DNA of 64,000 nucleotides from an uncultured Actinomycetota bacterium (GCA_963718235.1 CAVQYR010000001.1:416001-480000); one strand, 5' to 3'; positions 2,848-57,359 are shown, counted from the first letter of the stretch. Numbers and translations: made by a program. The notes: generated by a model from the letters alone, not told the origin.

Positions 2848-4214
2848 GCCAGACGTGGGTCCAGCTGGCCTACCTGGTCGCTGCGACCTGCTTCATCCTG
2901 GCGCTCAAGGGGCTCTCGTCACCGAAGTACGCCCGCCGCGGCAACCTGATTGGGGCGTTCGGGGCCACCCTCGCCGTACTGGTCACTCTGGTTGCGGAGT
3001 CGTGGGACCACCTCCCGCTGATCATCGCTGCGATCGTCGTCGGTACCGCGGTGGCCGTCCCGACCGCCCGGTCGGTAGCGATGACGGCGATGCCGCAGCT
3101 GGTGGCACTGTTCAACGGAGTCGGTGGCGCGGCCGCGGCGATCGTCGCGATCGTGGAGTTCTTGTCCAACGGCCAGAACGAGTCCAACGGCACGGTGGCC
3201 GCTTCGGTGTTCACCGTGCTCGTCGGGTCGGTCTCGTTCAGCGGCTCGGTGGTCACCTTCCTGAAGCTGCAGGGGCTCATGACCTCGCGCCCCGTGGTGT
3301 TCCCCGGCATGAAGTGGCTGGCGATCCTCACCGCCGTCGCCGCGGTGGGGCTGGCCGTCGCCGTGGTGCCGACCCGGTCGACGACGTTGGTGTTCGTGCT
3401 CGCCGCGGTCGCCCTGCTGCTCGGTCTGCTGTTCGTGCTGCCTGTGGGCGGCGCTGACGTCCCGATCGTCATCTCGCTGCTCAACGCCTTCACCGGGCTG
3501 ACCGTCGCCGCATCGGGGCTGGTGCTCGACAACGTGCTGCTGCTCATTGCCGGAACCCTCGTCGGCGCGAGCGGCACCCTGCTGACCAGGCTCATGGCCA
3601 CCGCGATGGGCCGACCGCTGACCGGGACGCTGTTCGGTGCTCTGTCGGGCACCTCGACGCTCGGCGGAGGCGAGGCGTCGGACCGGCCGGTCCGGTCCCT
3701 GGGTCCGCAGGACGTCGCGATCCAGCTCGCCTATTCGAGCAAGGTCATCATCGTTCCCGGGTACGGCCTGGCCGTGGCCCAGGCGCAGGGAACGCTCAAG
3801 GAGCTCGTCGACCTGCTGAACGAACGAGGCGTTGAGGTGGCCTACGCGATCCACCCGGTGGCCGGACGGATGCCCGGCCACATGAATGTGCTGCTGGCCG
3901 AGGCGAGCGTGCCCTACGAGCAGCTGAAGGAGATGGACGAGATCAACCCCGAGTTCCCGTCCACCGACGTCGTGCTCGTCGTCGGAGCCAACGACGTCGT
4001 CAACCCGGCGGCGCGCGAGCCAGGAACGCCCATCTCCGGGATGCCGATCCTCAACGTGGACCAAGCCCAGTCGGTGGTCTTCCTCAAGCGGTCGATGCGT
4101 CCAGGGTTCGCGGGGATCGAGAACGAGCTCCTGTACGACCCGAAGACCCAGCTGCTGTTCGGCGACGCGAAGGACTCCCTCGGCAAGGTCGTGACGGCGC
4201 TCAAGGCCCAGTGA
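2844..4214 (+). CDS. pntB: NAD(P) transhydrogenase subunit beta
   Basis: MTAMPQLVALFNG, GGADVPIVISLLN, IHPVAGRMPGHMNVLLAEA, GANDVVNPAA. Confidence 0.97.
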   Translation: MSQTWVQLAYLVAATCFILALKGLSSPKYARRGNLIGAFGATLAVLVTLVAESWDHLPLIIAAIVVGTAVAVPTARSVAMTAMPQLVALFNGVGGAAAAIVAIVEFLSNGQNESNGTVAASVFTVLVGSVSFSGSVVTFLKLQGLMTSRPVVFPGMKWLAILTAVAAVGLAVAVVPTRSTTLVFVLAAVALLLGLLFVLPVGGADVPIVISLLNAFTGLTVAASGLVLDNVLLLIAGTLVGASGTLLTRLMATAMGRPLTGTLFGALSGTSTLGGGEASDRPVRSLGPQDVAIQLAYSSKVIIVPGYGLAVAQAQGTLKELVDLLNERGVEVAYAIHPVAGRMPGHMNVLLAEASVPYEQLKEMDEINPEFPSTDVVLVVGANDVVNPAAREPGTPISGMPILNVDQAQSVVFLKRSMRPGFAGIENELLYDPKTQLLFGDAKDSLGKVVTALKAQ

Positions 4215-12722: not shown

Positions 12723-13768
12723 CCAAGCCCACCCTCGCCGTCGTCGGCGCCACCGGGGCCGTCGGCACGGTCATGCTCGACCTGCTCAGCACTCGGGCCG
12801 ACGTATGGGGTGAGATCCGCTTGGTCGCCTCGGCGCGGTCGGCGGGCAAGAAGCTGGTCGTGCGCGGCGAAGAGGTCGAGGTCGTGGCCTTGGCGCCGGA
12901 GGTCTTCGACGGCGTCGACGTCGCCATGTTCGACGTGCCCGACGAGGTATCTGCGCAGTGGGCACCGGTTGCTGCCTCGCGCGGAGCCGTGGCGGTCGAC
13001 AACTCCGGCGCCTTCCGGATGGACGACGACGTGCCGCTCGTTGTCCCTGAGGTGAACCCGCAGGCGGCCGGTCGGCGCCCTCGCGGCATCATCGCCAACC
13101 CCAACTGCACCACGCTGTCGATGATCGTGGCCGTGGGCGCGCTGCACCGACGCTACGGTCTGCGTGAGCTTGTCGTGGCGTCCTACCAGGCCGCGTCAGG
13201 TGCCGGCCAAGGCGGCATCGACACCCTCTACGCGCAGACCCAGAAGGTGGCTGCTGCCGGCGAGACGGTCGGACAGCGTTCCGGCGACCTACGCCGAACC
13301 GTCGGTGACCTGGGGCCGTTCCCGGCCCCACTGGCGATGAACGTCGTCCCATGGGCCGGGTCGCTGAAGGACGCCGGTTGGAGCAGCGAGGAGCTGAAGG
13401 TGCGCAACGAGTCGCGCAAGATCCTCGGCCTGCCGGAGCTTCGGGTGTCGGCCACCTGCGTGCGGGTCCCGGTGATCACCACGCACTCGCTGGCCGTGCA
13501 CGCCGTCTTCGACGAGCCGGTCGACCAGCTGCAGGCTCAGCAGCTGCTCAGCGAGGCGGCCGGAGTCGTGGTCGTCGACGACCCGGCGGCGGGTGAGTTC
13601 CCCACGCCCAACGACGTCGTGGGCACCGACCCGACCTGGGTGGGCCGGATCCGGGTGTCCCTGGACGACCCGAACGCACTCGACCTGTTCGTCTGCGGTG
13701 ACAACCTGCGCAAGGGTGCCGCGCTCAACACCGCCCAGATCGCCGAGCTCGTTGCCACGGAGATCTAG
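12719..13768 (+). CDS. asd: Aspartate-semialdehyde dehydrogenase
   Basis: [24 protein letters not shown] catalytic Cys, [19 protein letters not shown]. Confidence 0.97.
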
Positions 13769-13819
13769 TGTCTCCGATACTCGGGAACACTCGATCGTCG
13801 TGCTGTCGTAGAGCAACGG

Positions 13820-15993
13820 TCACCGGCGACGACGGTGCTTGCTGGTGCGTGGCGCGGTCCCGGTCTGGGCGGTCAGCGCGTCGAGCTCCCGGGCAGCGCT
13901 GTCTGGCCCGGTCGGCGGAGGGCGCTTCGGCGGCGTAGGCGGTCTCGTCGACCGCGGTGAAGGCAGTCCGGTGCAGCGACCCGTTGGGCACCCGTCGGGC
14001 CAGCTCGGCCACCGTCTCGGACCGGCCACGTCCTGCGTTGACGGCGACCAGGGCGGACTCCAGGCGACGGAACGCAGGCAGCGGCTCGGGTTCTGGCCGG
14101 TCGGCGTGGTTGAGGCTTGCCCGCTGCGGGTCCCGCCGAACGGCCCGGCGGCGCCGGTACACCGTGCGAGCTCCCCAGCCGGCCACCACCAGCGCGAGCA
14201 CGATCAGGGCCGCCTGGACGCGGTCGGCCGCGGAGTCCAGGAGGGCGCCGACCTTCGTGGCCAGGCTCGAGGCGAAGGACTCTGACGCCGGTGCGAGGGC
14301 CGCTCCGGCGGTGGGGTCCGACGACACCCAGCCGACGCCGGGAACCCACGCCTCCACCCACGCATGGGCCTGGTCGGCGCGCAGGGGGCGCCAGCCGTCG
14401 TCCGTGGGAGTCGGCTCGCTCGAGAAACCGGTGACCACGCGCGCGGGAATGCCGCCCGCGCGAAGCAGGATGGCCTCGGCACTGGCGAAGTGCTCGCAGA
14501 AGCCGAGCTTGGACTCGAACAAGAAGTCGTCGACAACGTCCTGCCCAGCCGGTGTCACCGGAGAGTCCAGGGTGTACTGCGCGTTGTTGCGCACGTACGA
14601 CTCCACGTCGTCGACCGCTTCGGCGGTGGTGTCGGCATCCGACACGAGGTCCTGCCCGAGCCGGCGGACCCGGTCTGGAACCGACGTCGGAACCTGGGTC
14701 CACACGTCGGGCAGCCCTGCGGAGTCGCGTTCGGCTCTCGTGGCAGGTGGATCGTCACGGACGTCCTGGGCGGACGGGATCGGCGCAGCCTCGACGACAT
14801 ACGTCACCTGCGGGTTGTCCATCAGGTACGGGAAGCGGTTCGAATCGACACCGGGCCAGATCTGGAGCCCTCCTGCTCCGTCGACCACCGGGCCGCGGGC
14901 CTGGACCACGACCGGTCGGCCGGGTGCCACGACCACTCCGGTGAACAGGTCGGTTCCCGAGACGGGGTACGCGATCCAGCCGTTCGGGTTCTCGGTGTCG
15001 ACACTCTGCGTTCCGCCGTCCGCGGGGGAAGGAGCCAGGACCACCCCTTGCTGGATCTCGTGGAGGCTCCCGGTGCCGGCGAAGGATGTCGACAGCCAGG
15101 TCCCGTTCTCGTACGTGTCGTACACCGTTCCCCGCCACAGGCTCGGTGAGTCGGCCGGGACGAAGACGATTGGATCGTCGGGGAGCGGTCCACGGACCCG
15201 CAGGTCCAGCGAGCCGCTGGAGTAGCTGGCCACCCCCCGCGCGACACCGCCCGTGGTCTCCGGCTGCCCGACGCCACCGGCTGCGAGGCGACTGCGTAAG
15301 CGAGGAGCCGTCAGGGACCGGGACCAGCAGGAGCAGGACGACGCTGAGCACGGCGACCGTAGCCAGCGCGCGCACGAGCGGGACAACCGTCGGGGCACGG
15401 TGGGACAGGGACGCAGGACGCGCCGTCTCGGACGCGGAGCGCACCTGATGGCTCCGGTGGAGGACGACTCCGCCGGCGACGACCACACCACACCCCACCA
15501 GCAGCGGGAGTGCGAGGGAGACGCCGGGAGCGGTGCCAGCGGCCAGGACGAGCATCAGGGCTGCCGTGACCAGGCCGAAGGTCAGGTCGCGGTCGCGCTC
15601 CTGCACGAGGGTGTGGGCGACGCACAGTCCGACGAGAGCCTTGGCCAGGAACCCGAACATCTGGTCGAGTCCGGGTGCGCCAGCAAGCAGCATGACCAGC
15701 GCCACCAGCAGGAGCACGGCGACGCTGGCGGCCTTGCGTACGGTCTGCCCGGTGGGATCGCTCCAGGCGTAGGCGAGGGCTGCCGACGCAGCGACGGCGA
15801 TGAGCCCGGTCGCCGTCCACAACGGGGTCAACAGCCCCGAGACGGCGAGGCCCACTATCCCGCAGCCGGTGGCGGTGACGACGAGGATGCGCAGCACTTC
15901 GCTGCGACCGACCTCGAGGCCGCTGTCCGTTGCCGACGGCTCGGACGCAGCCTTGGCCGACGCGCAGCGCGGGTCCGCCGTCCGCGTCGTCAT
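13820..15993 (-). pseudogene. Membrane-anchored transglutaminase-like (TgpA-type) protein, split by two apparent +1 frameshifts (~15298 and ~13903)
   Basis: TM-rich N-terminus in one frame; LWRGTVYDTY, GFCEHFASA (Cys), AHAWVE (His), DPT (Asp) in a second; SAARELDAL tail in a third; third gene of a MoxR-DUF58-transglutaminase operon. Confidence 0.8.
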
Positions 15994-17099
15994 CGCGGGC
16001 CCGGCAGGGACGTGACGTCGACGACGTCCACGCCGTAGGGGGAGAAGGCGGCGGCGAGGCGGGGCCAGGCCTCCGCCCGCATCCCATGGGCGACGACATG
16101 CACCTGGCCGCCGGCGCCGGCGACCTGGGCCGCGCGCTCGACGAGGTCGGGCTTGGGCCAGCCCGCAGGCTCGATCGCCGCGCACCCGTCGAGCGAGGAG
16201 TCCACGGTGGCCGAGAGCACGGCGTCGAACACCGGCTGGTCGGCGAACAGGTTCACGTCGTGCCCGGCCCGAACCCCCTGAACGGCCAGCGAGGCAAGGA
16301 CGCGAACGGAGCGCTCCCAGGTGGGGCGGTCCGATGCAGTGATCGCGAGCAGGTTGAGGGTCGGTCGACGTGGCGCCTCGCGTTCGAGCACCACGAGCTG
16401 CCCGCGCCGTGCACTGGCCCGCCAGTGCACCTGACGGGCGTCGTCGCCGTTGCGCCACTCGCGAAGTCCCCGCACGGTCGGCCCGTCCCGCCGGACGCTC
16501 GCCCGGCTGGAGCGCTCGTCGTCGGGCTCACGGGGGTTCACCACCGGGACCGGGACCAGGGCCGGGCGAACCACCAGCGGCACCGCCACGGCGCTGTTCG
16601 ACGTCACGAGGACGACGCCGAACGGCGAGCTGCTGCTCACCGTGAGGGCGTGCCCGGGAGTGACACCGCGATCGGTTGCGGTGCGGACCACGCTGACGGT
16701 GGCACTCTCGCGTGGGGCCAGGGCCGGCACGAGGACCACGACGTCGGCCACGCCGTGCGTGTGGTCGCGCAGGTGGGCCAGAGACGTGCGCCTCGACCCC
16801 ACGTTGGTGACCGTGAACCGGTGGCTTGCCGTCTGGCCGACCGTTGTGGCCGTCGGGTGCTCGACCGTGACGACCAGACCGCTGATCCGCGGCGACTGGA
16901 GGAGCGAGGCCACGACGACGGCAGCACTGACCGCGGCGAGCACGTGCAGCCACACCGTCCCGGTCAGCCAGGCCAGCCCCTCGAGCGCTACGGCAAGGCT
17001 GGCCGGGACCAGGAGCACCTGGGTGAGAGTCCGGTTCGGAGAAGGCATCTCGGTCGAGGCGGACACTGAGCGTGAGGCGGGCACGGGGGACTCACCCAC
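15990..17099 (-). CDS. DUF58 domain protein
   Basis: GLREWRNGDDARQVHWRASARRGQLVVLE signature; overlaps the moxR stop. Confidence 0.88.
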   Translation of the reverse strand: MGESPVPASRSVSASTEMPSPNRTLTQVLLVPASLAVALEGLAWLTGTVWLHVLAAVSAAVVVASLLQSPRISGLVVTVEHPTATTVGQTASHRFTVTNVGSRRTSLAHLRDHTHGVADVVVLVPALAPRESATVSVVRTATDRGVTPGHALTVSSSSPFGVVLVTSNSAVAVPLVVRPALVPVPVVNPREPDDERSSRASVRRDGPTVRGLREWRNGDDARQVHWRASARRGQLVVLEREAPRRPTLNLLAITASDRPTWERSVRVLASLAVQGVRAGHDVNLFADQPVFDAVLSATVDSSLDGCAAIEPAGWPKPDLVERAAQVAGAGGQVHVVAHGMRAEAWPRLAAAFSPYGVDVVDVTSLPGPR

Positions 17100-18072
17100 C
17101 AATGGGCACGGCCACCCGGCGCAGGGTCTCCGACACGACGGTCTCATCCAGCTCGACGGAGGCAGGGAGCATGACCAGGCGGTGAGCGAGGACCGCGGGC
17201 GCGACGGCCTTGACGTCGTCCGGTGTCACGTAGGCGCGCCCCTGGCAGACCGCCCTCGCCTGAGCCACCCGGACCAGTGAGATGGCGGCTCGGGAGCTGG
17301 CTCCCAGGTGGACCCGGGCGTCCTGGCGGGTGGCCCGGGTGACCGCCACCGCGTAGTCGAGCACGGCGTCGGAGACGTGCAGGAGGCGGACCTCGTGCTG
17401 TGCCGCACGCAGCTCGTCGGCGGTGGTGACCGGTGTGAGGTCGTCAACGGTGGGTCGGGCCAGCTGTTCCCGGACGACGCGCACCTCCGAGGACACGTCG
17501 AGCTCACCGAGCCGCAGCCGCAGGGCGAACCGGTCGAGCTGACCTTCCGGCAGGGGGTAGGTGCCGTGGTGCTCCATCGGGTTCTGCGTGGCCAGGACGA
17601 AGAAGGGGTCGGGCACCGGGTGACGGTGACCGTCGACGGTCACGGCGCCTTCGTCCATGACCTCGAGGAACGCCGCCTGGGTCCTCGGTGGTGTGCGGTT
17701 GATCTCGTCGACCAGGACGACGTGGGCGAACACCGGGCCGGGAACGAACGTGAAGCTGTGGTCGGTGGGGTTCCACATGCTGGACCCGGTGATGTCGGCC
17801 GGCATCAGGTCGGGGGTCCCCTGCACCCGACCGAAGGAGCCACCCACCGAGCGGGCGAAGGCGCGCGCGAGGGTGGTCTTGCCGCTCCCCGGTACGTCTT
17901 CCAGCAGGACGTGTCCGCCGGCGAGCATCGCGGCGCCGACCAGCTCGACGACCTCGGAGCGCCCGCGCACGACCCGCTGGACGTTCTGGATCAGCCGTTG
18001 GGCCACCGACCCGGCCACCCCGTGGCTGGCGCCAGGGTGTGGCTCGACGTCGGTCGACGAGGCGAGACTCAC
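17092..18072 (-). CDS. moxR: MoxR-family AAA+ ATPase (start uncertain)
   Basis: GHVLLEDVPGSGKT, PDLMPADITG, DEINRTPPRTQAA, ATQNP.E..GTYPLPEGQLDRF. Confidence 0.92.
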   Translation of the reverse strand: MSLASSTDVEPHPGASHGVAGSVAQRLIQNVQRVVRGRSEVVELVGAAMLAGGHVLLEDVPGSGKTTLARAFARSVGGSFGRVQGTPDLMPADITGSSMWNPTDHSFTFVPGPVFAHVVLVDEINRTPPRTQAAFLEVMDEGAVTVDGHRHPVPDPFFVLATQNPMEHHGTYPLPEGQLDRFALRLRLGELDVSSEVRVVREQLARPTVDDLTPVTTADELRAAQHEVRLLHVSDAVLDYAVAVTRATRQDARVHLGASSRAAISLVRVAQARAVCQGRAYVTPDDVKAVAPAVLAHRLVMLPASVELDETVVSETLRRVAVPIGG

Positions 18073-18185
18073 CGCGGCGCCCCCCGAGGAACTGTGACAG
18101 CTGACCTCACTCCATCGACCCGTGGCGCCCGCGTCTGAAGGGCTCGAAGCCAAGTGGTGGCGCTGAGCGGGGCGTGGGATGAGTC

Positions 18186-19361
18186 CTAGTCGGGCTGCCG
18201 GCTGACGTACTCGGCCATACCCGGAACGGTGAAGGCGATGAGGCCTCGTGAGGGGGCGTAGATCAGCCCCTTCTTGATCAGCTGGTCGCGCGGGACGGAC
18301 AGCTCGTTGCGCTCCTTGCCCAGCGTCTCGGCCACGGTGGCCATCGACAGGGGGGAGTCACCCGCCAGGTCGGACATGGCCCGCATGATGAGCCGCTGGT
18401 TGGGCGTCGCCCGCTGCCATCGAGCGCGGTAGAGGCCCGCATCGACCTCTCGCCGGGCCTGCACCAGCCCGGCCTCGACGTCGGCCGCAGTGATCGGCGA
18501 CTTTGCGGCGTAGTCCCAGGCGTACTTGCCCCCGGTCTGGATGAAGTACGGGTAGCCGTGGCTGAACTCGTCCAGCCGGGCGAGCGCCTCAGGGGTCCAC
18601 TGGACCCCCAGCGCCGCCGCCGGAACGGCCAGCGCGTCGTGGGCGGCGCCCCGGGCCAGTGCACCGATCTCGAGGTACTCGTAGAGGCGTTCGGCGTACG
18701 ACGTGGCCTTCGACAGCACCTCCGGCAGCGAAGGCAGGCCCGCCCCGACCAGGACGAGCGGACGCGGGTCGACACCCTGGCCCAGCTCGTGGACGGCGCT
18801 GTTGAGTGCTCGCAGCTCCTGCGCGGGGACCTCCTGCATCTCGTCGACCAGCAGCAGGACCCCGACCCCGAGGTCGCGCGCGGTGCTGCCCAGGGCGGTG
18901 AACAGCTCGGGGAGGTCGACCGCAGGGTCACCGGTGTCCGCGCGCCCGGGTACGGCCTGCACGTCGAACCCGAAGGAGTAGGTGCCGGTGGGGTCGACCT
19001 TGACCGTGAAGGACCGGAACACCTGCAGCAGCCCGATGACCCGGGAGCGGTCGAACCGGCCGGTGGCGATCCGCAGGGACCGGTGCAGCGACTGGGCCAG
19101 GTAGGGCAGGACCGAACGACCGGCCGCGGCCTCGAGCTTGGCCGTGATCCAGTGCCGTTGCTCGGCCATGCCCTGGAACTCGTTGAGCAGCACGGTCTTG
19201 CCCACGCCGCGCAGTCCGTAGAGGATCCGGCCGCGTTCTCCGTGGCCCAGCTCGCTGCGCTGCATGAGGACGTCGAAGGCGCGCAGCTCGGTGTCGCGTC
19301 CGGCCAGCTCGGGGGGCCGGCGCCCAGCACCGGGTTGGTACGGGTTGTGCACGGGGTCCAT
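18186..19361 (-). CDS. P-loop ATPase (AAA_16/archaeal-ATPase-like) with probable C-terminal winged helix
   Basis: NPYQPGAG.RPPELAGR, GLRGVGKT, LLLVDEMQ, GYPYFIQ, RDQLIKKGLIY. Confidence 0.85.
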   Translation of the reverse strand: MDPVHNPYQPGAGRRPPELAGRDTELRAFDVLMQRSELGHGERGRILYGLRGVGKTVLLNEFQGMAEQRHWITAKLEAAAGRSVLPYLAQSLHRSLRIATGRFDRSRVIGLLQVFRSFTVKVDPTGTYSFGFDVQAVPGRADTGDPAVDLPELFTALGSTARDLGVGVLLLVDEMQEVPAQELRALNSAVHELGQGVDPRPLVLVGAGLPSLPEVLSKATSYAERLYEYLEIGALARGAAHDALAVPAAALGVQWTPEALARLDEFSHGYPYFIQTGGKYAWDYAAKSPITAADVEAGLVQARREVDAGLYRARWQRATPNQRLIMRAMSDLAGDSPLSMATVAETLGKERNELSVPRDQLIKKGLIYAPSRGLIAFTVPGMAEYVSRQPD

Positions 19362-19368
19362 GAATCAA

Positions 19369-19401
19369 ACTGTATACGAGTACATATGGACTTCCCATAT
19401 G
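19369..19401 (-). promoter_or_regulatory. Leaderless promoter (TACAGT -10) and palindromic operator candidate CATATGG-N5-CCATATG for the ATPase gene
   Basis: -10 at 19369-19374, seven nt before ATG; perfect 7-bp inverted repeat at 19383-19401 in an unusually AT-rich patch. Confidence 0.5.
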
Positions 19402-19420
19402 CTGGCGGAGAAGCGCTGGC

Positions 19421-20341
19421 CTACACCCCTGGCAGCAGCTGAAAGTCCCACCCGACGACTGCGGGGTGCCCCGCTTTGGCGGCGTTCGCGGCTTCGGGCA
19501 CCCAGGGGTGCAGCTCCCAGATGTCCGGCGGGCCCGGGGTCAGCGGTTCGGGCGTCTCATCAGGCTCAACCGTGCGGTCGTCGCGGTACGTCTCCTCGCA
19601 GGCTCGGACGACGTAGCCGTGCGGCAGCGCAGCGCGAAGGTAGTCCCCGAGGCCGTGGCTGTAGCCGGCGATGTGCCCGATGCGACCGTCCGGTGACTCC
19701 TTGATGAGCGGGTACCTGTTCGAACCCGTGAAGTGGCCACGAGTGTCGAGCAGGAGCAGGTGCCCGCCAGGCCGCATCACCCGCGCGGTCTCGGCGAAGA
19801 ACAGGTCGAGGTCGCGCAGGTGAGCCAGCGCCAAGCTGCACACCACATGATCGACGTCCCCGTCGGGTAGTGGCAGGTCAATGAGGTCTCCCGCGAAGAA
19901 GCGGGCCTGAGGCACAGCCTTCCGGGCGCGGGCGAGCATCGCGTGCGAGATGTCTACGCCGATGACCTCGTGCCCTAGTGCCACCAGCTGCTGCGCAACT
20001 GCACCGGTGCCGCATGCGGCATCGAGCGCGCGTCCCCGACTCAGGCGTTCGAGCATTGGTGAGAGCACGCTGTCGCGCATCGGAAAGCAGCCGTTGTCCT
20101 CACCGTCGTAGGTCATGGCCCAGCCGTCATAGCCGTCGGCCACTGGAAGTGGAGCAGTGTCGATCCCGGGCCCGAAGTCCTCGGCTCTGCTGAGCAGCTC
20201 GCGCACCTCGGCGATCCTGGCCTCGGTGAACGCGCGGTCATACTCCCCGGCGAAGGCGCGCATGAGCGCAACGCCTTCGAGCCCCAGCAGGTACGCCAGC
20301 GGATGCTGGTGGATGGTCGGGCCGGTCGGCGTGTCCGTCAC
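19421..20341 (-). CDS. Class I SAM-dependent methyltransferase
   Basis: [33 protein letters not shown]. Confidence 0.9.
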
Positions 20342-20490
20342 AGCTGCGATCCTGCGACGAGGTCGTGGCGGATGACAACCGGGTTACCCACGAAGGCCGA
20401 TGCCATGCCCACTTGCCAGGTACGACTCGATCATCGACAGCAGGGACGGATCTGGCGACGGACAACGGACCGTGCTGGCCCCGAACGACC

Positions 20491-20527
20491 CCAGCCGGTG
20501 TCTCTGAGCTGCAGAGACACCGGCTGG
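20491..20527 (-). terminator. Strong hairpin immediately 3' of tRNA-Pro
   Basis: CCAGCCGGTGTCTCTG / CAGAGACACCGGCTGG, perfect 16-bp stem with 5-nt loop. Confidence 0.75.
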
Positions 20528-20530
20528 ATC

Positions 20531-20610
<80 letters not shown>

Positions 20611-53068: not shown

Positions 53069-55678
53069 GTGGCCACCGAGGAGTCCGCGAGCCGCGGTCG
53101 CCGTCTGGTGATCGTCGAGTCGCCGGCCAAGGCCAAGACGATCCGGGGCTACCTCGGCTCGGGGTACGACGTCGAGGCCAGCGTCGGCCACATCCGGGAC
53201 CTGCCACAACGGGCGTCGGAGATCCCCGCCAAGCTCAAGGGCGAGAAGTGGGCCCGGCTCGGCGTCGACGTCGAGCACGACTTCGAGCCCCTCTACGTGG
53301 TCGACAGCGACAAGAAGAGCAAGGTCGCCGAGCTGAGGAAGAAGCTCGCTGCGGCCGACGAGCTGCTGCTCGCCACAGATGAGGACCGCGAGGGCGAGGC
53401 GATCGCCTGGCACCTGCTGCAGGTGCTCAAGCCCAAGGTGCCGGTGCACCGGATGGTCTTCCACGAGATCACCCCCGAGGCGATCCGGGCGGCGGTGGAC
53501 AGCCCTCGCGAGCTCGACCAGCGCCTCGTCGACGCCCAGGAGACCCGGCGGATCATCGACCGGCTGTACGGGTACGAGGTGTCGCCCGTGCTGTGGAAGA
53601 AGGTCATGCAGGGGCTGTCGGCCGGCCGGGTCCAGTCGGTGGCGACCCGGCTCGTGGTCGAGCGGGAACGCGAGCGGATGGCGTTCGTCACCGCGTCGTA
53701 CTGGGACGTCGAAGGGCTGTTCGAGCCGGGCCGGTTCACCGCCAAGCTCGTGGCGGTCGACGGCAGGCGGGTCGCCCAGGGCCGCGACTTCGACTCGCAG
53801 GGGTTGCTCAAGACCCGCGACGCCGTGGTGCTCGACGAGGCCGCGGTGCTGCAGCTCGTCGAGGGTCTCGCCGAGGCGACCTTCGCCGTTCGGTCGGTGG
53901 AGGAGAAGCCCTACCGCCGCTCGCCTGCGGCGCCGTTCATCACCTCGACGCTGCAGCAGGAGGCCAGCCGCAAGCTGCGGATGAGCGCACAGGTCGCGAT
54001 GCGAGTGGCGCAGCGGTTGTACGAGAACGGCTACATCACCTACATGCGTACCGACTCCACCACCTTGTCGCAGACGGCGATCGCCGCCGCGCGGGCACAG
54101 GTGGCGCAGCTGTTCGGCGCCGACCACGTGCACGACAAGCCGCGCACCTACGCCAAGAAGGTCAAGAACGCGCAGGAGGCTCACGAGGCGATTCGTCCGG
54201 CCGGTGACCACTTCCGCACGCCGGGCGAGCTGGCAGGTGAGCTCTCCCGTGACGAGCTCGCGCTGTACGAGCTGATCTGGAAACGAACGCTGGCCTCGCA
54301 GATGGCCGACGCGACGGGCAGCACGATGACGGTGCGACTCGGTGCGACGACCGCAGCGGGTGTCGACGCGGAGTTCTCGGCCGCGGGCACGGTCATCAGT
54401 CGCCGTGGGTTCCTCGCGGTGTACGAGGAGGGGCGCGACGACGAGACGGCGTCCGACGACGACGAGCGACGGCTCCCGGCGTTGAAGGTGGGTGACGCAC
54501 TGACGGCGTCGACGCTGCAGCCCGACGGGCATGCGACCACGCCGCCGCCGCGCTACACCGAGGCGACCATCGTGAAGGCGCTCGAGGAGCGCGGGATCGG
54601 TCGACCCTCGACGTACGCGTCGATCATCGGCACGATCTTGGACCGCGGCTACGTCTTCAAGCGCGGCAGCGCCCTGGTTCCGTCGTTCCTGGCCTTCGCT
54701 GTCATCAAGCTGATGGAGGAGAACTTCGGCGACCTCGTCGACTACGACTTCACCGCGCGCATGGAGGCGGTGCTCGACACCGTCGCCGACGGAGGGACGG
54801 ACCGCCTCGACGTCCTGAAGGGCTTCTACTTCGGAGACCCGTCGCGGGAGTTCCCGGGGCTGAGCCCTCTGGTCACCAGCTTCGGTGACATCGACGCACG
54901 GGCCGTCAACTCCTTCCCCCTGGGTGACGGCGTGGTGCTGCGGGTCGGCCGTTACGGACCGTACGTCGAGCGGGGTGAGGGTGAGACGGCCGAGCGCGCG
55001 AACGTCCCGGCCGACCTGGCGCCCGAGGAGCTCACGCTGCAGAAGGCAGAGGAGCTGCTCGCCCAGCCCAGCGGCGACCGCGAGCTGGGCATCGACCCGA
55101 AGACCGGCCTTGCGGTTGTGGCCAAGTCGGGTCGCTACGGCCCCTACGTCACCGAGGTGCTCCCCGACGACGCCCCGAAGTCGGCCAAGCCGCGAACGGC
55201 GTCGCTGTTCAAGGACATGAGCCTGGACACGATCACGCTGGACGTCGCCCTGCAGCTGCTGACGCTGCCGCGCGTCGTCGGCGTCGACCCGTCCGACGAG
55301 CTGGAGATCACCGCCCAGAACGGCCGGTACGGCCCGTACCTCAAGAAGGGCAGCGACTCCCGATCCCTGGAGTCCGAGCCGCAGCTGTTCAGCGTCACGC
55401 TGGACGAGGCGCTCGCGATCTACGCCCAGCCCAAGCAGCGCGGACGCCGTGCGGCGGCGCCGCCCCTGCGCGAGCTGGGCGCCGACCCGTCCAGCGGCCA
55501 GCCGATCGTGGTCAAGGACGGACGGTTCGGGCCCTACGTGACCGACGGCGAGACGAACGCGACGCTGCGCAAGGCCGATGCGGTCGAGTCGGTGTCGCTG
55601 GACCGGGCGATGGAGCTGCTGGCGGAGAAGCGGGCCAAGGGCCCGGCCCCCAAGAAGCGCGCCGCCCGCAAGCGCTGA
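53069..55678 (+). CDS. topA: DNA topoisomerase I (actinobacterial type with C-terminal repeats)
   Basis: LVIVESPAKAK, ATDEDREGE, SAGRVQS, GYITYMRTD, repeated GRYGPY units, Lys-rich tail. Confidence 0.98.
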   Translation: MATEESASRGRRLVIVESPAKAKTIRGYLGSGYDVEASVGHIRDLPQRASEIPAKLKGEKWARLGVDVEHDFEPLYVVDSDKKSKVAELRKKLAAADELLLATDEDREGEAIAWHLLQVLKPKVPVHRMVFHEITPEAIRAAVDSPRELDQRLVDAQETRRIIDRLYGYEVSPVLWKKVMQGLSAGRVQSVATRLVVERERERMAFVTASYWDVEGLFEPGRFTAKLVAVDGRRVAQGRDFDSQGLLKTRDAVVLDEAAVLQLVEGLAEATFAVRSVEEKPYRRSPAAPFITSTLQQEASRKLRMSAQVAMRVAQRLYENGYITYMRTDSTTLSQTAIAAARAQVAQLFGADHVHDKPRTYAKKVKNAQEAHEAIRPAGDHFRTPGELAGELSRDELALYELIWKRTLASQMADATGSTMTVRLGATTAAGVDAEFSAAGTVISRRGFLAVYEEGRDDETASDDDERRLPALKVGDALTASTLQPDGHATTPPPRYTEATIVKALEERGIGRPSTYASIIGTILDRGYVFKRGSALVPSFLAFAVIKLMEENFGDLVDYDFTARMEAVLDTVADGGTDRLDVLKGFYFGDPSREFPGLSPLVTSFGDIDARAVNSFPLGDGVVLRVGRYGPYVERGEGETAERANVPADLAPEELTLQKAEELLAQPSGDRELGIDPKTGLAVVAKSGRYGPYVTEVLPDDAPKSAKPRTASLFKDMSLDTITLDVALQLLTLPRVVGVDPSDELEITAQNGRYGPYLKKGSDSRSLESEPQLFSVTLDEALAIYAQPKQRGRRAAAPPLRELGADPSSGQPIVVKDGRFGPYVTDGETNATLRKADAVESVSLDRAMELLAEKRAKGPAPKKRAARKR

Positions 55679-55680
55679 CC

Positions 55681-55737
55681 CCCCGTTTCGCGCCCGATCG
55701 GGCCCGAATCGGGCCCGATCGGGCGCGAAACCGGGAT
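55681..55737. repeat. REP-like palindrome, left copy
   Basis: GTTTCGCGCCCGATCGGGCCCG-AAT-CGGGCCCGATCGGGCGCGAAAC, perfect 22-bp stem (55685-55731). Confidence 0.93.
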
Positions 55738-56618
55738 CAGGCGGCGGTGAGCTGACGGATCTGGGCCACCACGAGCTGGGGGCGGTCGGCGAGGTCGGCC
55801 CAGGTGAAGCGGAGCACCCGGTAGCCGGCCTGGAGCAGTCGGTTGCTCTTGTCGCGGTCCCGCTGGAACACCTCCCGCTGGCTGTGCACGTGGTAGCCGT
55901 CGATCTCGACGACGACCCGTTGCCGGGGGAACAGCACGTCGACCTCACCGATGCCGGCGAGCACGACGTTGGCCCGCCAACCGCTGATGCCCGCGCCGCG
56001 GAGGAGCTGGTGCAGGCGCAGCTCGCCGAACGAGCGGCCGCCCGCGTCGAGCAGCCGCACGATGGCCATGAGCTGGGGGGTCCCGTGGCACCCGGCCCGG
56101 CCGCTCGCATCGGCGGCGAGCTCGTCGACGGTGATCCACCGGCGGTGCAGGGCCTCGCGAGCAACGTCGACGGCCGCACGCCAGGGCAGGGAGGCGGCCA
56201 GGTCGACCGCCGTACGGCGCCGTGTGGTGACGGGGATGCCGAGTGCCGTCGTCACGTCGGCGGGCTCGAGCGGTGCGCTGCTGTGGGCGGTCAACCCGCG
56301 GACCTTCGGGTGGTTGCCCCGGGCCACGTGCACGTGGGCGTGCAGGTCGTCTCGCACGTCGGCCAGGCCGTGCAGCTCGGCGGCCGTGTGCAGGCCGGCC
56401 ACTCCTGGGCCGACCAGGGTCGCCGCTTGAGCCCGCTGAGGCACCCCGATCGGTGTCCCACCCTGGACATAGCTGGGACCGAGCACCGGGAGCCACTGCC
56501 GGGTCGCCACCATGCGTCGCTCCCGCTTGGCGGTCACACCCAGGGCCCGCAGCTGGGGTCGGGTGAACACGCCGTGCTGGGTGGCGAGCAGCTCGGCGAG
56601 GTCGGGCAGCGCGGTCAT
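55737..56618 (-). CDS. AbiEi-like N-terminal domain plus DUF559 (Vsr-like) endonuclease domain protein
   Basis: QHGVFTRPQL...W N-terminus, PVTT..RTAVDLA middle, EVDVLF...VVVEIDG..H...RD......L...GYRVLRFTW C-terminus. Confidence 0.88.
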   Translation of the reverse strand: MTALPDLAELLATQHGVFTRPQLRALGVTAKRERRMVATRQWLPVLGPSYVQGGTPIGVPQRAQAATLVGPGVAGLHTAAELHGLADVRDDLHAHVHVARGNHPKVRGLTAHSSAPLEPADVTTALGIPVTTRRRTAVDLAASLPWRAAVDVAREALHRRWITVDELAADASGRAGCHGTPQLMAIVRLLDAGGRSFGELRLHQLLRGAGISGWRANVVLAGIGEVDVLFPRQRVVVEIDGYHVHSQREVFQRDRDKSNRLLQAGYRVLRFTWADLADRPQLVVAQIRQLTAA

Positions 56619-56669
56619 CGCGGCACTATCGCCGGTGGGCGGGCTCGCCCGTCCCGACCGTCCACAGCT

Positions 56670-56726
56670 CCCCGTTTCGCGCCCGATCACGCCCGAATCG
56701 GGCGTGATCGGGCGCGAGACCGCGAT
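56670..56726. repeat. REP-like palindrome, right copy
   Basis: GTTTCGCGCCCGATCACGCCCG-AAT-CGGGCGTGATCGGGCGCGAGAC, 22-bp stem with one G.T pair (56674-56720); 51/57 identical to the left copy. Confidence 0.93.
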
Positions 56727-56741
56727 GGGTAGGGTCGATGG

Positions 56742-57359
56742 GTGAGTTCAGGGGTGTTCGTGGCGCTCGAGGGTGGCGAGGGCGCGGGCAAGTCGACCCA
56801 GCTGGACCTGCTCCAGAGGTGGCTCGGCGAGCAGGGTCACGAGGTCGTGGTCACCCGCGAGCCCGGCGGCACCCCGCTCGGTCGGCGGCTGCGCACGCTG
56901 CTCCTGGACCACGACACCGGCCCGCTGGCCCCCAGGGCCGAGGCGCTGCTCTACGCCGCTGACCGGGCCGAGCACGTGGCCGACGTCGTACGGCCGGCGC
57001 TGACCCGCGGAGCCGTCGTCCTGACCGACCGGTACATCGACTCGTCGATCGCGTACCAGGGCGCGGGGCGTGCGCTCGACCCGTCGGACATCGCCCGGAT
57101 CAGCGCCTGGGCCACCGAGGACCTACTGCCGGACCTGACCGTGGTGCTCGACATCGACCCGGTCGTCGGGCTCTCCCGGTTCGCCGACACCCCCGACCGG
57201 CTGGAGGCCGAGCCACTGCAGTTCCACCGGGCGGTGCGCCAGGGCTTCCTCACACTGGCGGCGGCGCAGCCCGACCGGTACCTGGTGGTCGACGCGGCGC
57301 TGACTCCCGAGCTCGTCCAGGACGAGATCCGCCGCGCGTTGATCCGAGTGCTCCCTTGA
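56742..57359 (+). CDS. tmk: Thymidylate kinase
   Basis: EGGEGAGKSTQ, TREPGG, LLYAADRAEH, DRYIDSSIAYQG. Confidence 0.97.
   Translation: MSSGVFVALEGGEGAGKSTQLDLLQRWLGEQGHEVVVTREPGGTPLGRRLRTLLLDHDTGPLAPRAEALLYAADRAEHVADVVRPALTRGAVVLTDRYIDSSIAYQGAGRALDPSDIARISAWATEDLLPDLTVVLDIDPVVGLSRFADTPDRLEAEPLQFHRAVRQGFLTLAAAQPDRYLVVDAALTPELVQDEIRRALIRVLP

Follow-up and report, generated by a model that had tools for sequence, protein, structure and literature searches.

A 64,000-nucleotide stretch of DNA from an uncultured Actinomycetota bacterium (GCA_963718235.1 CAVQYR010000001.1:416001-480000; hereafter the window, with positions counted from its first letter) carries, between topA and tmk, a block in which one gene for a protein with AbiEi-like and DUF559 nuclease-like parts is bracketed by two copies of a long palindromic repeat. 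This hairpin-gene-hairpin block, to which no strand is assigned, covers 1,047 nt (55680 to 56726), is present in this genome, and is absent in the sister species G001. Its neighbors, as recognized by Pfam, are topA, tmk, and holB. The left repeat (hairpin L, 55681 to 55737) begins 2 nt beyond the topA stop codon (55676-55678) and sits where topA and the nuclease gene converge, between their stop codons. The gene (55737 to 56618) is read on the minus strand from an ATG at 56618-56616 to a stop codon at 55739-55737, which shares the last base of hairpin L, and it encodes 293 amino acids. A 51-nt spacer (56619 to 56669, minus strand), presumed to hold the gene's own promoter, separates the start codon from the right repeat (hairpin R, 56670 to 56726), which ends 3 nt before a TAGGGT hexamer (56730-56735). 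These junctions had been described in the same way in an earlier reading of the sequence (hereafter the initial annotation), and the positions held on inspection. The block contains a single gene, and neither an AbiEii gene nor a transposase is found within it. A sigma-70 consensus scan of the 51-nt spacer region returned no promoter match.

Hairpins L and R are direct repeats of 57 nt each, identical at 51 of 57 positions (89%), as alignment and folding confirm. Like the block as a whole, they carry no strand assignment. Folded as single-stranded DNA, each forms one long hairpin with a 3-nt loop (AAT), on a 25-bp stem in L and a 22-bp stem in R. L folds at -36.8 and R at -30.0 kcal/mol (z = -9.9 and -8.2, respectively), and none of 200 shuffled sequences is as stable. 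The covariance model R1, which we built from nine copies of the repeat in this genome, scores the two at 81.6 and 77.8 bits. Reading the sequence bears out the initial annotation on their six differences: the exchange of GG/CC for AC/GT leaves two pairs compensated, an A-to-G change produces a G.T pair, and the last difference is outside the core stem. Rfam gave only sub-threshold matches to miRNA-like hairpins for these repeats. A terminator consensus scan of positions 55400 to 57000 found no terminator-like site, and the hairpins have no T tract, although hairpin L may serve as a tail-less terminator.

Independent samples cover part of this arrangement. An environmental contig (run X4, record 27) runs, with 13 differences, from the end of topA through hairpin L into the 3′ end of the gene; therefore, the left junction exists in an independent sample. 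Among the short contigs of four metagenome runs, there was no trustworthy joint over the block, the single candidate being a 1,641-nt skip whose shorter side is 25 nt, and parts of hairpin R were uncovered in these runs.

The enclosed protein combines two recognizable parts, whose assignment rests on sequence profiles. Residues 5-176 are AbiEi-like, comprising a winged helix and a middle domain, and they match PADLOC AbiEi models at 6.4e-18. The Pfam models AbiEi_4 and AbiEi_1 match slightly under their cut-offs. Residues from approximately 193 to 293 form a DUF559/Vsr-like PD-(D/E)XK nuclease in which the core residues are kept, and the Pfam DUF559 model (PF04480) reaches 31.1 bits where its cut-off is 20.6 (2.3e-7). 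A profile of 54 homologues matched, in the Protein Data Bank, the DUF559 structure 3hrl (8e-12), the Vsr-fold homing endonuclease I-Bth0305I (3r3p; 1.5e-6), and AbiEi (6y8q; 5e-4), such that the matches comprise 3hrl, 3r3p, and AbiEi/AbiGI. Across the same 54 homologues, residues E199, D227, E238, G241, H245, and D254 are invariant or at least 90% conserved. Thus, the two-part composition proposed in the initial annotation is borne out by Pfam, PADLOC, and structure profiles. When Pfam was run on the 293-residue protein, neither an HUH/Y1 nor a transposase domain was found, and the only matches were to DUF559, MTES_1575, AbiEi_4, AbiEi_1, and Vsr. NCBIfam gave only a chance match far under its cut-off, and PADLOC also gave a weak homing-endonuclease match. 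One published study groups Vsr, DUF559, and DUF2726 together, with a group I intron homing endonuclease among them (PMC3424549). The ATG start was chosen by homologue alignment. An alternative GTG at 56690 would give a protein of 317 amino acids but overlaps hairpin R.

The initial annotation anticipated that relatives would have an empty topA-tmk site, and one was found in G001, the only genome of the same genus that was searched. (The tallies of this comparison among relatives, and of the 40-relative search below, include the unpublished genomes G025 and G033.) There the gap between topA and tmk is 47 nt long and has neither the gene nor a hairpin: a shared TGAC is followed by 7 unrelated nucleotides and then by a shared GGGTAGGGT before tmk. 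No target-site duplication is visible at the block junctions when they are compared with this empty site. A member of another genus in the same family, G003, has a homologous gene at the same place, with 45% identity overall and 56% in the C-terminal part, and a search for related loci with the protein alone gave one locus at 40% identity. The topA-tmk spacers of other relatives, where extracted, are ordinary short spacers only. Elsewhere in G001, the closest homologue (L046) is frameshifted and was kept out of the locus set described below. It lies on a very short contig (C70, 1,679 nt), which suggests that the assembly was broken by repeats at both of its ends.

The hexamer beside hairpin R deserves a separate comment. 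The TAGGGT sequence is probably the -10 box of tmk. It stands 6 nt before the tmk GTG start (window 56727-56744) and is conserved in G001, which suggests, on this spacing, that the tmk transcript may be leaderless. The -35 region of this hexamer falls within the end of topA in G001 and within hairpin R in the genome studied here.

The repeat is not confined to the block. By short-word BLAST and covariance model R1, the 3.17-Mb genome was found to contain 10 loci of the family, of which 2 flank the nuclease gene and 8 are solo copies. Seven of the latter are on contig C1, at 16.2, 177.3, 191.2, 1426.2, 1474.6 (weak), 2136.3, and 2209.1 kb, and one is on contig C2, at 463.4 kb. The palindromes are 47-57 nt long. 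The initial annotation had called for a search for solo copies and had considered that the hairpin might be a general terminator; solo copies exist, and the family has neither a T tract nor a terminator match. The best match in 40 relatives, one of them of the same genus, reached 32 bits (E 2.8e-4), versus 40-82 bits for the copies here. Not all of these genomes are complete, and the family is best described as not found in those searched. The stem positions at which L and R differ, window 55700-55701 and 55715-55716 (columns 31-32 and 46-47 of alignment A1), are also the most variable ones in the family, with the other stem positions nearly invariant; they may mark a hot spot of mutation or a site of processing.

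Comparison with G001 covered seven of the eight solo copies, all but the weak one at 1474.6 kb, and four of the seven are at an indel edge or a synteny break. The copy at 191 kb forms the left edge of a 1.7-kb segment that is unique here and carries an extracytoplasmic function (ECF) sigma/anti-sigma gene and a rhodanese gene, and the copy at 2209 kb forms the right edge of a unique 0.44-kb segment with a glyoxalase-like gene. At 2136 kb, G001 carries 2.3 kb more where this genome has the hairpin only, and the two flanks of the copy at 1426 kb lie inside two different G001 contigs. The copy at 16 kb is within DNA that has no G001 match. The remaining two, at 177 kb on C1 and 463 kb on C2, replace approximately 37 nt and 60 nt, respectively, with no large indel. 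As a control, 40 kb of hairpin-free window contains one large indel, a 6.8-kb island, and its other breaks are G001 contig ends. The enrichment of solo copies at structural breaks looks strong, measured against a small control. Overall, these copies are located mostly at gene ends and indel edges rather than at promoters.

Several observations were made along the way. The 6.8-kb island (window ~13762-20531) has no counterpart in G001, whose contig C314 is continuous across it (73 nt), and no hairpin of the family is present at its edges. The solo copy near 177.2 kb of C1 (L002 ~2900-3010) lies between the stop codon of the preceding gene and the control region of a gene whose product starts MSRAVGIDL. 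This gene resembles dnaK, and it is preceded by a TTGAGT-N-ACTCAA inverted repeat similar to the HspR operator. Near 463.3 kb of C2 (L008 2880-3200), the solo hairpin lies between two stretches that are highly conserved in G001 and look structured, with no Rfam match.

The genome holds three other full-length paralogues of the nuclease gene and one 45-residue remnant. None of the other DUF559 paralogues in the genome is within 16 kb of a copy of the window hairpin family, which agrees with each paralogue having its own palindrome. Indeed, one paralogue (C1:339.7-340.5k, in locus L011, C1:339568-340767) is flanked by a different repeat of approximately 70 nt, inverted and 92% identical over 66 nt, of which there are at least 14 solo copies on both contigs (family B). 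The ends of this 70-nt repeat are 13-nt inverted repeats containing GATC. The two remaining full-length paralogues are without repeated flanks. The remnant (C1:45934-46068, L012) corresponds to the C-terminal part of DUF559, is 67% identical to the window protein, and is fused in frame to the end of another open reading frame (ORF); its own small hairpin follows, and a family-B repeat is 1.1 kb away.

Is this layout peculiar to one genome? A homologue (E <= 1e-15) is present in 126 of 401 sampled Actinomycetia genomes, often with several per genome, in a tally that includes the unpublished genomes G046 and G254. We collected 62 loci, consisting of the window, its three own paralogues, and the best-scoring homologue hits, and dropped two (L063 and L073) with short flanks to leave 60. 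For each locus, the 300 nt upstream were compared with the 300 nt downstream, with 3,540 cross-locus pairs serving as the control. Thirty-one of the 60 loci score above the 99th percentile of the control (28.2 bits), for a control rate of 1%, and this answers in the affirmative the expectation in the initial annotation that homologous genes carry flanking palindromes. One positive locus (L071) is from the unpublished genome G046, and without it the count is 30 of 59. Scores of at least 40 bits were reached by 21 of the 60 loci, versus 5 of the 3,540 control pairs, and those five are between orthologous loci. Single-linkage clustering of the proteins at 60% identity gives 32 clusters, of which 17 contain a positive locus, and each of the 17 has a repeat sequence of its own. 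In this genome, 4 of 1,342 crude ORFs exceed 28.2 bits in the same comparison, and only the window gene reaches 40 bits or more. The possibility that the arrangement is an assembly artefact or a chance repeat was considered and rejected on the fold z-scores, the environmental contig, and this genome-wide ORF control.

The position of the repeats recurs as well. Upstream, the repeat is found 20-120 nt ahead of the start codon; downstream, it borders on the stop codon or overlaps it. Most flanking repeats are long hairpins whose sequences vary between loci, and their outer arms are related between distant homologues. Among 22 same-genome paralogue pairs (at most 80% protein identity), none has a common upstream hairpin, the top score being 26 bits. 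The similarity of proteins and that of upstream sequences correlate weakly overall (rho 0.14), and because this correlation is weak and driven by orthologues, we do not count it as evidence for co-phylogeny. The co-variation of gene and palindrome that the initial annotation proposed to test is seen instead in the fact that orthologues share hairpins, that same-genome paralogues never do, and that the two ends of a locus evolve in concert.

One syntenic site was also compared across 13 species of another genus. Six species carry an orthologous hairpin-gene-hairpin block between the same convergent genes, with flanks 75-89% identical. Seven other sampled species have both flanks and lack exactly the hairpin-to-hairpin stretch. 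In one of these (G366) the site is empty, with two stop codons back to back; another (G260) has a 16-nt half hairpin; three (G101, G249, and G393) have one solo hairpin each; and two (G057 and G339) have other or degenerate sequence. The solo hairpin of G101 best matches the hairpin that flanks the homologue located elsewhere in the same genome (87% over 53 nt), and the corresponding match for G249 is weaker (91% over 23 nt). The gene evolves with a ratio of nonsynonymous to synonymous substitution rates (dN/dS) of 0.11-0.27 at dS 0.9-1.9, which marks it as being under purifying selection.

The twelve hairpins that flank the gene in the six species have nearly invariant outer arms and an inner stem that varies with pairs kept. 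RNAalifold identifies compensated changes in 6 of 14 pairs. Double-change cells number 19, compared with 7.8 +/- 2.2 in shuffles (0 of 500), for a bracket string whose outer part is one column out of register and for rows that are not independent where they are the upstream and downstream copies of one genome. In three of the six species, the upstream copy resembles the downstream copy of the same locus more closely than it does any orthologue; in G180, its inner part shares 93% identity with that partner and no more than 34% with any other copy. The other three species are closely related, and their upstream copies are most similar to one another. Apart from this site, the cognate hairpin of a homologue was found at further loci of the homologue's own genome in three cases, with 17 in G199, 19 in G366, and 3 in G411.

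Thus, the module is old and under selection, its two ends are kept matched, it is gained or lost as a unit, and solo copies of its hairpin exist in the same genome. All of the sequence-based tests named in the initial annotation were carried out; they support its interpretation, namely that the protein may recognise and cut or propagate its own hairpin family, and none contradicts it. With moderate confidence, judging from sequence comparisons, we read the block as a partnership resembling that of repetitive extragenic palindromic (REP) sequences and REP-associated tyrosine transposases (RAYTs), but built on an unrelated nuclease. The block would be a self-contained module consisting of one gene, its own promoter, and two direct copies of the palindrome cognate to its protein. 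In such a module, the AbiEi-type winged helix would most likely read the sequence-conserved outer arm of the palindrome, and the nuclease part would nick or cut the extruded hairpin. Host repair and recombination would then copy hairpins to new places and keep the two flanking copies alike, and they would occasionally delete or re-insert the gene between its flanking hairpins. Binding of the hairpin, its cleavage, and any dispersal caused by the protein are predictions of this model.

A number of points weigh against this reading. No matched pair is seen by the flank test at 29 of the 60 homologous loci, and these loci, having been taken as the best-scoring hits with an orthologous series among them and with script-set start codons, are neither independent nor random. 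The closest relative with a gene at the same site, G003, retains one shorter, degenerate hairpin beside the topA stop codon, half of which resembles half of the window hairpin by eye. In G366, two more pairs of the nuclease-flanking hairpin bracket a NUDIX gene and a YtfJ-like gene, and therefore the pairing of hairpins is not exclusive to the nuclease gene. Copy numbers (3-19 solo) are low next to those of classical REPs. Gain and loss at the variable sites are not polarised on a tree, and the binding and cutting of the hairpin by the protein are predicted features. Furthermore, we know of no strand-transfer chemistry for PD-(D/E)XK nucleases, and for this reason dispersal would have to rely on host repair, which is speculation. 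Finally, when the nine aligned copies of this genome are taken together, their covariation does not clearly exceed that of shuffles (87.4% paired versus 84.9%; 25 of 500), and in 5 of the 9 the dinucleotide by which L and R differ is unpaired. The claim of the initial annotation that pairing rather than sequence is conserved consequently has good support in the orthologous series of the other genus only, and within this genome it depends on the two copies L and R.

In the two additional G366 loci, we also observed that several ORFs end in residues encoded by a hairpin arm (L104 1005-1673, NUDIX, idi-like; L105 1051-1576, YtfJ-like).

It is tempting to extend the partnership to a bolder proposal, which we consider possible though doubtful. 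Perhaps AbiEi-DUF559 genes and their palindromes constitute an undescribed, Actinomycetia-wide repeat system that is driven by a nuclease and exchanges cassettes without an integrase or transposase. The Vsr-like enzyme would nick its extruded cognate hairpin, possibly at stem mismatches, and repair would restore perfect stems, homogenise both ends, and seed solo copies. Repair of this kind would explain the compensated changes and the concerted evolution. The hairpins would also act as joints for the gain or loss of single genes and small segments, a role that would account for the hairpins at indel edges and for the bracketing of NUDIX, YtfJ-like, and glyoxalase-like genes.

A more conventional explanation is that the gene encodes a stand-alone defense or repair nuclease that regulates itself. 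The upstream palindrome would be its operator, the downstream palindrome a terminator and second operator, and the solo copies extra sites or decayed remains, with nothing mobile. AbiEi proteins repress their own promoters through inverted repeats, and the N-terminal two thirds of the window protein match AbiEi models and structure 6y8q. The fixed placement of the repeats at -120 to -20 from the start and at the stop codon would suit this role, as would a gene that is selected and syntenic in six species. However, the block with its hairpins is cleanly absent in G001 and, at another site, in G366, and solo and half hairpins remain at syntenic empty sites. The preference of solo copies for gene ends and indel edges over promoters also counts against this explanation, an operator does not need co-variation of the inner stem, and unrelated genes are likewise flanked by hairpin pairs. 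We consider autoregulation unlikely on balance.

Alternatively, the palindromes could be an independent family, akin to REPs or to miniature inverted-repeat transposable elements (MITEs), that is moved by other means, with the nuclease gene being either a homing-type inserter that duplicates palindromes or a captured passenger. The profile likeness to I-Bth0305I and the weak PADLOC homing-endonuclease match lend some credence to this alternative, as do the G366 hairpin pairs around unrelated genes, the hairpins at indel edges, and the different hairpin families at the same intergenic site in different species. Yet the empty sites of G001 and G366 hold no hairpin that could have served as a target, and the hairpin is not found in the sister species, which is without the gene at this site. 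Each paralogue with repeats has its own family, with none shared in the 22 pairs, and the relatedness of outer arms between distant homologues argues that hairpins travel with the gene and are not arbitrary targets. This arrangement strikes us as quite improbable. A third option, that the protein is the AbiEi antitoxin of a type IV toxin-antitoxin (abortive infection) pair, has the AbiEi domain matches on its side and is very improbable, since the AbiEii partner is missing, the neighbors are topA and tmk, and the C-terminus is a conserved nuclease domain; the initial annotation had likewise concluded that the protein is not an antitoxin.

If the REP/RAYT-like partnership is real, it would have several consequences. 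To our knowledge, REP/RAYT is the sole well-described example of a bacterial repeat family that has one dedicated gene as its long-term partner. An independent second example would show that such partnerships are a general evolutionary outcome, and this one would involve a different class of enzyme and be common, given homologues in 126 of the 401 sampled Actinomycetia genomes. Genes annotated as 'AbiEi/DUF559 domain-containing' are now designated antitoxins or left without a function, and a large set of them would acquire one. Many long intergenic palindromes in high-GC genomes would also be explained. Should hairpins truly mark the gain and loss of neighboring genes, they would represent a new route of small-scale genome change, and the proteins could be practically useful as sequence- and structure-specific nucleases. 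Our literature search, from which subscription journals were largely absent, found no paper linking DUF559/AbiEi-nuclease genes to flanking palindromes.

It is instructive to compare the block with known systems. The protein itself falls among DUF559/Vsr-like nucleases, given a domain above the cut-off and a conserved acidic and histidine core. Like AbiEi antitoxins, it matches AbiEi models over residues 5-176 and has a palindrome upstream, reminiscent of the AbiEi operator. In contrast to these antitoxins, it has no AbiEii gene, a fused nuclease, a second palindrome at the 3′ end, and solo palindromes elsewhere. With the homing endonuclease I-Bth0305I (3r3p) and with 3hrl, it shares a nuclease domain that is homologous by profile, and a patchy presence at a fixed site between housekeeping genes is a further point of likeness. 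Homing endonuclease genes interrupt their own recognition site, and their empty allele is cleaved and converted; for the window gene, the corresponding observation is that empty alleles exist in G001 and, at another site, in G366. The window gene differs in being in no intron or intein, in having an additional AbiEi-type DNA-binding module, in being bracketed by complete palindromes that are also found alone, and in showing long-term purifying selection at a syntenic locus.

The palindromes can be compared with other elements in the same manner. They differ from intrinsic terminators in lacking the combination of a GC-rich stem and a T tract. Insertion sequences and MITEs also provide a poor match, given the absence of a transposase domain, the direct orientation of the flanking repeats, and the lack of a visible target-site duplication. 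There is a certain resemblance to the attC sites of integrons, in that the inner stem keeps its structure while its sequence varies, single genes are bracketed by hairpins, and hairpins lie at the edges of gained or lost segments. However, an integrase, an array, and attI are all missing, and the cassette gene comes with a promoter region of its own; the likeness to attC is a resemblance only.

The closest parallel is the REP/RAYT system. REPs are 20-40 nt long, occur in tens to hundreds of copies, and carry a conserved 5′ tetranucleotide (GTAG/CGTC). The palindromes described here are longer (47-60 nt, with stems of at least 20 bp) and much rarer (3-19 solo copies, and 10 copies in all in the window genome). 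The flanking copies are direct repeats, the downstream one of which abuts or overlaps the stop codon, and the enzyme is a winged helix joined to a Vsr-like PD-(D/E)XK domain rather than an HUH Y1 protein of the IS200/IS605-like type. In REP/RAYT systems, a single-copy gene is flanked by a palindrome family scattered in the same genome, there is one family per gene with paralogues having different families, and the gene persists over long times by vertical inheritance under purifying selection (10.1101/119735, 10.1101/2021.07.10.451892, PMC8266576, PMC3733652). The same features recur here: a gene flanked by a dispersed palindrome family is seen for the window gene, for its second paralogue in this genome, and in G199, G366, and G411, each such paralogue has its own family, and the gene is likewise long-lived, inherited vertically, and subject to purifying selection. 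The likeness is one of layout and population pattern, not of homology.

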